Notes: a model not told the origin generated them from the letters alone. DNA of 64,000 nucleotides from a virus (IMGVR_UViG_3300032356_000182:31739-95738), one strand, 5' to 3'; numbered from the stretch's first letter, positions 4,495 through 26,448 are shown. A program made the numbers and translations.

Positions 4495-6492
4495 ATGACA
4501 AGAGATTCTCATAGTTTTTTTCGCGAATGGCTTTCTTCTAGTTTAACGAAGAGCTTAGGAGGTTTAGGCTCTGGTCATTATGCTCATGCGGGGCGTCCAG
4601 GTTTACGAGGAGGATCAGCGCCTAGTAGAAAAAAAGCTACCATATCTGGAGAAAATCACCCAGCAGCAGATATTCGAATTGTTATCGGGAAATCTGAGCA
4701 TCTTCCAGAAGACAAGCGGTCGTCGAGTAAGCGCCAAGCTTTGGCTAAAACTATAAGAGATATGTTGTTTAGTATTAATCCGGCTTATTTGCAAGGATTG
4801 AGAAAGATAACAACAGATCCTCTTCCAGGTCAAGGAGAGTGGCCTCGCGATATAGGCGGATACTATACTCAATATGCTGATATTCATTTGAATGTTGCAG
4901 CCCTCTCTGGCGAAGACGAGGAGGAAGATATCAGACAAATTCTTTTGCATGAGATTGGCCATCATGTGACACTTCGGCTTGGTCAGAAAGATCCGAAAGA
5001 TTATGCTGGTCTTCGTGATATATGTTATCTGGATAGTAAAGATACGGTTTTCACGCAGCGGAAGCTAGATAGTTTTAAGAAAACCGTCCCTCTTGAGAAA
5101 GATGCTGCTGAAGACTATCTAATTGATTTTGGTTTGCGTCCTTATTCTCTAACGAATAGATTAGAGTTTGCCGCTGATGTTTTTGCTGTGATGATGCTTG
5201 GCGACCCTCTCAGGAAGACAAATCTGGCAAAGATGCTTGGCTTTGATAATCTAGAAGGTATCTTTCGTGTTGATGTTCCTCTATCAGGATATGGTCTTCC
5301 GAAGGTGGTTAAGAAGTATGAGCCTCAGATAGATGATTTAGGAGAGCTTGTTTCTTCAGTTTTGGCTCTCGGCGGCCCCGGTTCAGGCTTTCATGGCCAT
5401 GCGGGTCGTCCTGGTAAAAGAGGAGGCTCCGCTCCTAGAAGTGACTTCGCTAATGCATCTGATGAAAAGGAATTTAGAGATTTAGTTTTTAGGGAAAGAA
5501 GGTCGAAAGAGTCTAAAAAGTCTTATGAGTTTGAAAAGAACAAGCATGATTTTAGAGTTTTACTGAAGCTTATTGATGATAGTGGGGGTCGAGATTTTCA
5601 TCAGCAAGTTGCAGATTGGGGCAGATATGAAGGTCGTCTGTCTCCAGAGCGCGAGGAGATGCGGAGAAGTCTTGCTAATTGGGAATCTAAATTCCATCTT
5701 GATATATCTAGATTGCTAAATGGAAAGATTGCTGACGACTCTCAGCTTACGGCGTATGGAAGTATAAGTGAAGCTGAGCGGGATATCTCTGGTCTGGACG
5801 CTGCGTTTAGGGAAGCTCCTTCTCTGCCTCATGGCATAATTGTTAGAAGAGGATTGATGGCCGCATCTAAGGCGGCGGCTACTTTTTTGAGTGCAAAGCC
5901 TGAAGATCTTGTAGGGAAGATTTTGCTGTGTAAATCGTTTGTTAGTACTACGATAAGCAAAGATGTTGTTAGGGATTTCTCTCGAGCTGGCTTGTTGGGG
6001 ACGAAAACGGTCACTTTTAATATTAAAGTCCCGGCTGGTGAGAAATTCATTGCAGTGTCTAGTGCCGAATCTGAGATTCTGTTAGATCGAAATCTGCAGT
6101 TTGAGATTGAAGATTTTTCGATTACTTCTGGAGAATATCAGGAATACAACTATACGCTAAAGGTTGTCCGAGGAAAAATTCCAGATATTGAGCTTTCTGA
6201 GCCAGCTGTTTTCCTCGGCGGTCCTGGATCAGGTTATCACGGTCATGCTGGCCGCCCCTCTTTCCAGGGCGGTCCTGCTCCGAGAGGTGTTGGATTCGTA
6301 GAAGAGAGAGAAGAACAGGCACCTTATTCTGAAAAGCAGCCAGCTTTGTCTAAGCCTAGTGTATTGGATGATTTTAGAGATGTTTTGAAAGCTTCTTTGC
6401 TCGTGAGGCTCAGAGCTTGTAAGCCGAATAGTCGTCTGGCTCGGAGATTAAGAAAGATATCAACCTGCCTTGATGCGGCAGAGGAAAGGTAA
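4495..6492 (+). CDS. Tagged effector polyprotein 1: tag-HExxH metallopeptidase-tag-R-S-E ADP-ribosyltransferase-degenerate tag-basic tail
   Basis: Tags at 4555, 5368, 6214; LLHEIGHH; IIVRRG / FVSTT / ESEILL (VIP2/C3-like ART triad). Confidence 0.85.
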   Translation: MTRDSHSFFREWLSSSLTKSLGGLGSGHYAHAGRPGLRGGSAPSRKKATISGENHPAADIRIVIGKSEHLPEDKRSSSKRQALAKTIRDMLFSINPAYLQGLRKITTDPLPGQGEWPRDIGGYYTQYADIHLNVAALSGEDEEEDIRQILLHEIGHHVTLRLGQKDPKDYAGLRDICYLDSKDTVFTQRKLDSFKKTVPLEKDAAEDYLIDFGLRPYSLTNRLEFAADVFAVMMLGDPLRKTNLAKMLGFDNLEGIFRVDVPLSGYGLPKVVKKYEPQIDDLGELVSSVLALGGPGSGFHGHAGRPGKRGGSAPRSDFANASDEKEFRDLVFRERRSKESKKSYEFEKNKHDFRVLLKLIDDSGGRDFHQQVADWGRYEGRLSPEREEMRRSLANWESKFHLDISRLLNGKIADDSQLTAYGSISEAERDISGLDAAFREAPSLPHGIIVRRGLMAASKAAATFLSAKPEDLVGKILLCKSFVSTTISKDVVRDFSRAGLLGTKTVTFNIKVPAGEKFIAVSSAESEILLDRNLQFEIEDFSITSGEYQEYNYTLKVVRGKIPDIELSEPAVFLGGPGSGYHGHAGRPSFQGGPAPRGVGFVEEREEQAPYSEKQPALSKPSVLDDFRDVLKASLLVRLRACKPNSRLARRLRKISTCLDAAEER

Positions 6493-6686
6493 TCAATCTT
6501 TTGAGGAAACAGCAGATGATCTAGAAAATCAACTCGGTCAAGCTAAAAATCTGAAAAACCATAAGCCAAAATCAGAATAGAGCGATTTTTTAGTCTTTAG
6601 ACATGCTTATTTTCAAGCTGTTGTTTTATTTGATTGCCTTAAAACTAGATCTTTAAGAAAAATCTAAAAGGAAATAAAAATAAGTT

Positions 6687-6908
6687 ATGTCTTCATCTTG
6701 CGATAATGGATTTATAGGTTGTCCATCTTCTAATTGTCCGCGGGATAAATTAGCTAGACTCGGGCTTGTTAGAAATAAGCCGGGCATCTATCTCTGGTGC
6801 AAAAACTGTCACCGAGAGATAGGCTTTACTTTTGCGGAGCTCTTAGCTAGATTTGAGACTGATGATTATATTGAAGAAAAAGCTAGCGAGCTTTCTAGGC
6901 GTTTTTGA
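6687..6908 (+). CDS. Small zinc-ribbon protein, Mu Com-like
   Basis: CPSSNC...GIYLWCKNCHREI pattern resembles Com-family zinc fingers. Confidence 0.55.
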   Translation: MSSSCDNGFIGCPSSNCPRDKLARLGLVRNKPGIYLWCKNCHREIGFTFAELLARFETDDYIEEKASELSRRF

Positions 6909-6978
6909 TAGGTTTGCTATGAGAGAGGAAAGAATTGATTTGAAATCAAATATTCTAACTTAAGATGTTTCGAGGGTT

Positions 6979-25152: not shown

Positions 25153-25196
25153 TTTAAGTAGTATCTGAAATATTCTTAAGAACTTATAGATATTAG

Positions 25197-25232
25197 AAAG
25201 AGCCCTTGAGCCTATCTCAAGGGCTTTTTATT
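25197..25232 (+). terminator. Leader terminator-like hairpin containing GAGCC-N3-GAGCC
   Basis: AGCCCTTGAG-cctat-CTCAAGGGCT perfect 10-bp stem plus T tract, immediately before the RBS. Confidence 0.7.
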
Positions 25233-25242
25233 AGGAGTGCCA

Positions 25243-26448
25243 ATGAGAAAACAAGAAGTTGTTGTTCATTTTCAGCCTGTAAAGCTCAGTGAGGAAACTA
25301 CAGAGAAGAAGTGGATTGATTTGGTTATGGATGGCGAATATATCAGCATGGACGGTAGTCCTGTTGTTATTAAGCCTTCCGACATTGAGATGTATATCAG
25401 AAATTTTGAAAAGAATGTACGTGGCCAAGAGATTCCTATCACTGTAGATCATCCTGAGCAAGGAGGAATAGCTGCTGGATGGTTAGAGAAACTTCGAGCA
25501 GTAAAGCGGTGGGTTACGACGATTGATGGAAAAAAGGTTTTGAAAACTGTTCTGCAAGGGCTGCCATCTTGGACCCCCTATGGGAGAGAAAGAGTTGCTA
25601 ATCGAGAATATCGCTATATTAGCGCTGAACTTCTTCCTAACGCTTTACGTGCTGTTAGTTTGGTTAATTTTCCAGCGGTTAAGGGTATGCAACCAGTCGA
25701 GCTTGGAGAAAATAAAACTGATGGGATGATTCACAAATATCTAATTGGAGGTGATTTATCAATGGATGAGACGAAGCCGATCACAGAAGAAGACGCGATT
25801 GATGCGTTGGCCGAAAGCATTGTAGATAAGGTTATAGCAGCCTTTGAAGAAGATCAAGATCAGCCCGAAGACGAGGAAGATGCGAAAGAGTTTGGTGAAG
25901 ATCTTGACGATGAAGATCTTGAGGATCTTGAAGACCTTGATGACGAAGACCTTGAGGAGAGAAAGAAGCTCGGCGAGAGTCCAGAGGCTTTGCTGGGCTT
26001 GATTGAAAGCATTGTTGAAGATAAGATTAAGCCTCTGATGCAAGAAAACAAAAGATTGAGAAAAAGTCTTAGCGAGACTGAAAGTCTCTTGGGCAAGCTG
26101 ATGGAAGAGAAGAAGCGGGCAGAGCTTCGGGAAAAAGTTGCTCAAGCAGCTTCATTGGGAGATGGCAAGGTTCTGAGTCCTGCTGTTAGATCTCTAATTG
26201 AAGAAACTATTGTTTCAGATCCGAAGTGTATCGAAGGTAATGTCTTGAAGCTTGTCAAAGCACTTACCCGACAAGATGCAATAGTAACTTTGGGTGAAGT
26301 GGGATCGAATTTCAACACTGGAGTACCTGCTCGCGGGACGCCGGAATTTGAGAAAGCTCTTGATGCTCGTGCTAAGGAATTGCAAGCTACAAAAGGCTTG
26401 TCGTATCTAGCAGCTGCTAAGGAAGCGATGAAAGAATTCAGATCTTGA
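25243..26448 (+). CDS. Prohead protease / scaffold (Mu gpI-like); probable internal scaffold start at 25762
   Basis: VDH..AAGW, WTPYG..YRYISAE, SLVNFPAVKGM; acidic coiled-coil C-terminal half; in-frame GGAGGT-N9-ATG at 25762. Confidence 0.9.
   Translation: MRKQEVVVHFQPVKLSEETTEKKWIDLVMDGEYISMDGSPVVIKPSDIEMYIRNFEKNVRGQEIPITVDHPEQGGIAAGWLEKLRAVKRWVTTIDGKKVLKTVLQGLPSWTPYGRERVANREYRYISAELLPNALRAVSLVNFPAVKGMQPVELGENKTDGMIHKYLIGGDLSMDETKPITEEDAIDALAESIVDKVIAAFEEDQDQPEDEEDAKEFGEDLDDEDLEDLEDLDDEDLEERKKLGESPEALLGLIESIVEDKIKPLMQENKRLRKSLSETESLLGKLMEEKKRAELREKVAQAASLGDGKVLSPAVRSLIEETIVSDPKCIEGNVLKLVKALTRQDAIVTLGEVGSNFNTGVPARGTPEFEKALDARAKELQATKGLSYLAAAKEAMKEFRS

Follow-up and report, generated by a model that had tools for sequence, protein, structure and literature searches.

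Comparison of homologous sequences identifies the short motif [VI]-x-[LF]-[SA]-E as a real signature of the Mu-like prohead protease family (Mu-like_Pro, PF10123), a member of which is encoded by the phage IMGVR_UViG_3300032356_000182 directly downstream of a gene for one of several proteins carrying the same glycine-rich tag. By analogy with the proteases of other phages the motif is probably the one at which this enzyme cleaves, while the further proposal, that the enzyme cuts most joints of the ADP-ribosyltransferase (ART) modules within the tagged polyproteins, is evenly balanced on the sequence evidence. The stretch analysed (the window, 64,000 nucleotides, whose coordinates are used throughout and collected in Table 1) runs from base 31739 to base 95738 of a viral record that is complete, with direct terminal repeats and a length of 95,738 bases, and represents a 95.7-kb phage (96 kb in round figures). 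Fifteen tags of the form LGG-x-GSG-x-[HY]-x-HAGRP are found in seven open reading frames (ORFs, named here by their first base), with a 23-residue consensus (LGG-P-GSG-x-H-G-H-A-GRPG-KR-GGS-AP) whose conserved core starts at GG. Seven tags follow N-terminal leaders 9-38 residues long, the other eight being internal, and the modules behind them include six ART, one PARP-like enzyme, two modules with an HExxH sequence and several without a Pfam family. If the joints are cut, the phage would make strings of host-modifying enzymes (six ART, a PARP-like, zincin-like and other modules) sharing one tag for loading, and the protease of capsid maturation would also separate the packaged enzymes.

The protease/scaffold protein and its family motif

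The protease ORF, in which a scaffold domain follows the protease domain, matches PF10123 with 47.6 bits (cut-off 25.2; 42.7 bits when the genome was searched). Among 1.84 billion representative proteins 354 homologues were identified, the best 150 of which were aligned around the two boundaries of the protease domain. At the C-terminal boundary the columns hold P (125 homologues), V or I (123), a variable residue, L (134), S, G or A (131) and E (118, with G in this column once), while at the N-terminal boundary they read [VIA], a variable residue, L or F (120), A, S or G (87) and E or D (116). The protease domain is thus bracketed by the same short motif. Candidate catalytic residues H70 and S127 (P0039 numbering) are invariant in 30 aligned homologues, as are other columns, and we infer a catalytic role for both from the alignment.

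The motif recurs in the scaffold domains. Those of the 149 other homologues together contain 439 copies of L[SAG]E where 101 would be expected (4.3-fold), at least one copy is present in 112 of 117 homologue scaffolds (median 3), and the control patterns remain near expectation (reversed motif 0.8 times, [IVM][SAG]E 1.2 times). Enrichment in the homologous scaffolds differs by residue at each position: L (4.3), F (4.2) and M (2.3) at the first, with I and V at about 1; S (7.6), A (3.8), T (3.6), G (2.2) and D (0.7) in the middle; E (4.3), D (2.4) and G (0.9) at the third. The protease/scaffold ORF of the window itself contains L[SG]E five times where 0.63 would be expected from its composition, a count that 0 of 2000 shuffles equalled and that makes it the clearest outlier among 60 ORFs. 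As the protease is envisaged to act, it would cut after the Glu, by analogy with T4 gp21 (L/I-x-E) and with the proteases of phiKZ and SPN3US (A/S/G-x-E), freeing itself at QPVKLSEE and QPVELGEN and cutting its scaffold at three further sites.

The pattern of repeats is also found with a different last residue. The gpI of an E. coli Mu-like phage, encoded in a Mu-like prophage region of an Stx2c phage record (L099 1414-2547), contains LSA nine times (0.3 expected), also at both ends of the protease domain, and no L[SAG]E. The repeat architecture is kept there while the last residue shifts from E to A with the subfamily. In many homologues (P0040-P0047, P0056-P0059) the protease is preceded by an additional N-terminal domain, 60-220 residues long, whose end coincides with the N-boundary motif; the motif would then separate three parts, namely N-domain, protease and scaffold.

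Herpesvirus assemblin is a serine protease made as a precursor with consensus sites at the end of the protease domain and in the scaffold part (R and M sites), and Mu-like_Pro is presumably placed in the assemblin clan by Pfam. The layout of sites is alike in the two, whereas assemblin differs in its consensus (V/L/I-x-A followed by S, with the cut between A and S) and in having only the scaffold as cargo. A sequence search found no solved structure of the Mu-like protease family, a literature search found no mapped cleavage sites of Mu gpI or Mu-like proteases, and single-sequence searches for protease relatives in viral and genome contigs found nothing.

Candidate sites at the polyprotein joints

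A profile built from both boundary motifs of the homologues, with the window's own protein excluded, was scanned over 19,236 positions in the 60 ORFs. Its two best matches are DIELSE in ORF 4495 and DIQLSE in ORF 15231, each of which closes an ART module ahead of a tag, and DIKFSE in ORF 6979 ranks ninth. Taken together, the eight internal joint windows score above random core windows (p ~0.004, paralogy uncorrected). Alignment of the ART modules places [LF][SA]E at most 20 residues past the last strand in five of the six, while the surrounding linker residues have diverged; when counted conservatively, three of four independent ART groups have it (chance p ~8e-4). One or two non-ART joints also carry the motif, and the ART homologues of other tag-bearing phages end without [LF][SA]E. 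Over the 15-25 residues preceding the tags the motif shows a nominal enrichment (odds ratio 3-5, p 0.006-0.03; for L[SAG][ED] 4-5, p 0.006-0.01) in a post hoc test to which MKLADA (twice) and DI-x-[LF]-SE (three times) contribute paralogous copies.

An AlphaFold2 model of ORF 15231 (mean predicted local distance difference test, pLDDT, 74.6) predicts the ART core (residues 59-294) with confidence and shows the tags as disordered. DIQLSE (residues 298-303) has a pLDDT below 50 and is positioned between a strand (285-294) and a helix (306-326), and because it falls in this low-pLDDT gap the site is predicted to be accessible, MKLADA being less so. A second contig with tags, L002 (9 kb), has DSLSEF right before one of its two tags and RPVELSES at the protease boundary, a single case that is consistent with linker sites being matched to the resident protease.

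Processing as proposed here would take place inside the prohead, where the protease would cut the polyproteins at the motif-bearing joints and release most but not all modules. A released module would begin not with its tag but 4 to ~30 residues upstream of it. The tag is an element separate from the cut motif, and its task would be to bring the cargo into the head.

Several observations weigh against this proposal. No site is present at two of the eight internal joints (the third and fourth of ORF 19592) or in five or six of the seven N-terminal leaders, which lack [LF][SAG][ED], and the MKLADA copy of ORF 15231 lies inside the predicted helix 306-326. Tail proteins and others contain profile matches that are just as good, the polyproteins show no enrichment over their full length (2 in each, with 0.9-1.5 expected), and the ART joints are paralogous and so represent few independent events. 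In other phages L[SAG][ED] is not enriched before the tags (odds ratio 0.2-0.5). With regard to the motif itself, a cut between L and S-E would fit an assemblin-like register as well as a cut after L-S-E fits a T4-like one, and in helical scaffolds the motif could have a structural role. Finally, the virus is known from metagenome sequence alone.

An earlier note on this DNA had taken L-[SAG]-[EDG] to be a motif shared by protease, scaffold and linkers, at which the protease would cut the polyproteins into single enzymes. Its observation is partly confirmed and its interpretation partly supported. The strings that it quoted are all present in the protease/scaffold protein, the tagged ORFs and the MuF-like ORF (IKFSER having F, and MKLADA occurring twice), and the narrower [VI]-x-[LF]-[SAG]-E is indeed the family motif, but the form given in the note is too permissive: of 29 matches outside the tags, 23-24 lie inside enzyme cores, and G at the third position is not supported, since L[SAG]G in homologous scaffolds is at 0.9 times expectation as compared with 4.3 for E. 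Division into single enzymes agrees with the position of the best profile matches at ART ends before tags, but not with the joints that lack a site, and one site for every tag is contradicted by those joints and by the leaders. Nothing in the analysis supports the suggestions that fusion keeps the enzymes latent in the producer cell or that this explains the scarcity of immunity genes.

Possible, though on the unlikely side, is that the prohead protease leaves the polyproteins uncut, so that they are packaged and injected whole, in the manner of some large virion proteins, or are processed, before injection or after it, by zincin-like modules of their own, the joint motifs being due to chance, shared descent or a structural role. 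Two paralogous tagged modules with HExxH sequences are present inside the polyproteins, HEIGHH in ORF 4495 (4624-5367) and HELGHH in ORF 6979 (7972-8676), and by these sequences they are possible metallopeptidases. Iyer et al. (2017; PMC5512222) argue in favour of zincin metallopeptidase processing and cite proteins that are packaged uncut, and the two joints without a site, the equal-scoring sites in unrelated proteins and the unenriched polyproteins all agree with this alternative. It does not account for the two best family-profile matches falling exactly at module ends or for the retention of the motif amid diverging residues in five of six ART modules. Moreover, the SprT-like or zincin matches of both HExxH modules are weak and below Pfam cut-offs, and HExxH is found in the tagged ORFs of only 8 of 38 tag loci, so that a zincin is not the general processing enzyme.

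The tag and other readings of the motif

A degenerate DNA pattern located the tag in 38 stretches (L001-L038) of ~27 other viral contigs, where the cargo behind it includes 2H phosphoesterase, PI3/4-kinase-like, zeta-toxin-like, nucleotidyltransferase/HD, GNAT acetyltransferase and ART-PolyVal modules. The tags of the window differ at synonymous sites, which indicates purifying selection on the peptide and no recent duplication of the DNA. We infer that the tag is most likely a signal that brings cargo into the head. Of 93 distinct joints, 36 have K immediately ahead of GG, 23 have L, 10 each have D and R, and 8 have E, with N in some phages as well. Within one phage this residue does not change: all 15 tags here have L, encoded by five different codons, and phages elsewhere have uniformly K (all 9 tags), R (all 7), D (all 5), E (all 3) or N (all 3), whereas positions -2 to -4 vary. 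Such a pattern suggests a specificity position that a phage-specific partner recognizes. The earlier note had counted the tag opening, LGG, as part of the motif, which does not hold given that the residue before GG varies in other phages and that L[SAG]G is unenriched in scaffolds.

A cut at the N-terminal edge of the tag, between the pre-GG residue and GG, is an unlikely alternative that comes close to this idea of a tag opened by the motif. The pre-GG residue would then be the P1 residue matched to the protease of each phage, the cut would fall here between L and GG, and the family motif would be read with a cut between L and S-E. The invariance of the residue within phages and its change between them, while codons and positions -2 to -4 vary, would fit such a role, although a binding partner might just as well be what reads the position. 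Phages with E before GG have [LIVM] at -3, as in the T4 rule, and the register of [VI]-x-L followed by S mirrors the assemblin rule given above. The scaffold site KKLGES has KKLG in common with five tags, but G is not favoured as the third residue of the scaffold motif and was found only once in the boundary column where 118 of 150 homologues have E. In addition, a propeptide role is less obvious for leaders that in other tag phages are down to 8 residues long, and the protease family is known for four tag phages only. It is similarly improbable, in more general form, that the tag is a portable cargo signal of unrelated tailed phages, acting as address and cut mark at once with the pre-GG residue as P1 of each phage's own maturation protease; if it were, a phage could load and release any enzyme placed behind the tag.

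Very improbable is a reading of L-[SA]-E as a structural or binding repeat of helical scaffolds (for instance the beginning of a helix together with its hydrophobic staple) and not a cleavage site, with the copies behind ART modules being linker helices. In its favour, scaffold proteins are helical, L[SG]E is slightly more frequent in the window as a whole than expected (30 with the protease included, against 17.6) and a helix is predicted a few residues past DIQLSE. Against it, the motif also stands at both ends of the globular protease domain, and its third residue is A in E. coli Mu-like gpI with the repeat pattern kept. Moreover, the residues preferred at helix N-caps are Ser, Thr, Asp, Asn and Gly, any hydrophobic residue being accepted as the staple, so that the scaffold motif, with Asp depleted in the middle and Ile and Val unenriched at the first position, is not an N-cap pattern.

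The tag and a PF10123 protease occur together only in the phage of the window and in L002 (2 of 28 tag records with PF10123). Of the other tag phages, one encodes an S78 protease and one a ClpP-type enzyme, and none of 52 further Mu-like-protease loci has tags; a general link between tag and Mu-like protease was rejected on these counts. The S78 (HK97-type) match lies inside a 508-residue frame, long for a protease alone, in L018 (G020:C1:1211-1534), where the pre-tag residue is K. In several phages (L019; P0015, P0017 and P0030) the tag is preceded by a short strand-like stretch of alternating hydrophobic residues, such as VILK, LVYK or RVIK.

BLAST clustering of all ORFs around the tags found no shared partner gene beyond the tagged proteins themselves. 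A tblastn search of the tag against GenBank phages gave no match, probably owing to the low-complexity filter, and a metagenome scan with the L-type tag pattern gave 8 stretches only, at least five of them apparently repeats of IMG/VR tag records. No description of the tag was found in a literature search that included a term search of the polyvalent-protein paper (PMC5512222), whose passages so searched mention neither a glycine-rich element nor linkers.

Known systems and the head module

Phage T4 packages enzymes in its head, including an ADP-ribosyltransferase, and trims them with gp21 at L/I-x-E (PMC12991175, PMC5694885). Head-carried enzymes and a three-residue motif with a hydrophobic residue and Glu would be features shared with T4 capsid targeting (Alt, internal proteins). 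In contrast to T4, the protease present here is Mu-like (PF10123; a search with PF03420, the S77 or gp21 family, gave no match here, but none with positive controls either), several enzymes are joined in one chain, and the targeting element would be the conserved 23-residue Gly-rich tag, which recurs inside polyproteins and is probably kept, whereas the T4 signal is a short N-terminal peptide that is removed. No such short N-terminal peptide removed at L/I-x-E is seen in the tagged proteins; the candidate sites lie at internal joints. Cleavage after Glu at A/S/G-x-E is documented for packaged proteins of phiKZ and SPN3US, in which the protease also trims its own C-terminal part (PMC5694885). 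The inner-head (ejection) proteins of phiKZ, 201phi2-1 and SPN3US are alike in that many packaged proteins are cut after Glu, and differ in having long propeptides, no repeated tags or enzyme strings, and an S80 protease.

Polyvalent proteins, as described in PMC5512222, combine ART, metallopeptidase and MuF-linked modules in head gene clusters, with domain processing proposed to involve, among others, assemblin-like peptidases. As in these proteins, ORFs 19592, 4495 and 6979 each hold at least two effector domains per chain in a phage head context. They differ in that no fusion to a MuF or other virion anchor domain is present, the MuF-like protein being a separate gene that ends 38 nucleotides before ORF 19592, and in having a free-standing protease and a tag at the head of each module. 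The tag is apparently undescribed, and the concept apparently varies the T4/phiKZ model and that of the polyvalent proteins. If true, it would extend the model of packaged and processed proteins from T4 and phiKZ to a Mu-type protease and true polyproteins. The motif could serve as a sequence rule for finding substrates of Mu-like proteases, and the conserved tag as a flag for virion-delivered effectors in metagenomic phages.

The head module occupies bases 4495-28000 of the window. Its order of portal, MuF-like, protease/scaffold and capsid protein genes is that of a Mu-like head module, with tagged cargo genes interposed between the MuF-like gene and the protease gene.

Table 1. Tagged proteins, candidate sites and head genes in the window (aa, amino acids; tag positions within proteins are residue numbers)
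Feature	Coordinates	Strand	Remarks
Tags (15)	4555, 5368, 6214, 7051, 7903, 8677, 12249, 14097, 15324, 16209, 19619, 20477, 21719, 22505, 23520		positions in window
Tagged polyprotein, 665 aa	4495..6492	+	tag, zincin-like module, tag, ART, tag, short tail; tags at 21, 292, 574; ART PF03496
DDLGEL, weaker candidate joint site	5332..5349	+	9 aa before tag 2 of ORF 4495; low family profile score
IELSEP, best candidate joint site	6187..6204	+	6 aa before tag 3 of ORF 4495; profile 13.1 bits, rank 1
Tagged polyprotein, 887 aa	6979..9642	+	tag, ART, tag, zincin-like module, tag, module without assigned family; tags at 25, 309, 567; ART match
IKFSER, candidate joint site	7876..7893	+	6 aa before tag 2 of ORF 6979; profile rank 9
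MKLADA, doubtful site	8635..8652	+	weak profile score
Large terminase, gpA-like	10259-12031		in head module
Tagged PARP-like enzyme, 491 aa	12186..13661	+	PF00644 match, 57 bits; single N-terminal tag at 22
Tagged protein, fold not assigned, 248 aa	14031..14777	+	leader contains FGLSDA
Tagged ART, 349 aa	15231..16280	+	PF03496 match; tags at 32, 327
IQLSED, candidate site after last ART strand	16125..16142	+	ORF 15231; profile 11.8, rank 2
Portal, Mu-type	16854..18344	+	PF06074 match, 153 bits
MuF-like head protein	18397..19554	+	directly after portal gene; HVNCRH motif
Tagged polyprotein, 1266 aa	19592..23392	+	four tags (10, 296, 710, 972), three ART (three PF03496 stretches), one other module
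KNLSEA, candidate joint site	20453..20470	+	4 aa before tag 2 of ORF 19592
KTLAEM, candidate trimming site after last ART module	23324..23341	+	19 aa from C-terminus of ORF 19592
Tagged protein, 569 aa	23406..25115	+	directly upstream of protease gene; tag at 39
Prohead protease with C-terminal scaffold domain, 403 aa	25237..26448	+	Mu-like_Pro family
QPVKLSEE, candidate N-terminal autoprocessing site	25273..25296	+	third-best window match of C-boundary profile
QPVELGEN, candidate protease/scaffold boundary site	25690..25713	+	aligns to RPVELSES of L002; most homologue alignments stop there
KKLGES, candidate scaffold site	25963..25980	+
KSLSET, candidate scaffold site	26062..26079	+
VTLGEV, candidate scaffold site	26284..26301	+	family profile score 9.3
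Cement-like and coat-like ORFs			downstream of protease gene 25237-26448

The Pfam search matched no family, HD included, in the tagged ORF 23406-25115, nor PF04233 (MuF family) in the MuF-like ORF 18397-19554. ORF 15231 ends in a complete tag (16209-16280) followed at once by the stop codon, with no cargo behind it, and this end tag may be left over from a module since lost, or may show that tags can also work at a C-terminus. Variants with L-S-D occur at likely domain ends of two head proteins, as GKLSDG (19063-19080) and VKLSDE (19093-19110) after HVNCRH in the MuF-like protein and as PDLSDGQE (18192-18215) in the C-terminal tail of the portal. Both proteins may be further substrates of the protease, and IVKLSD of the MuF-like protein ranks 13th in the family-profile scan of the window.

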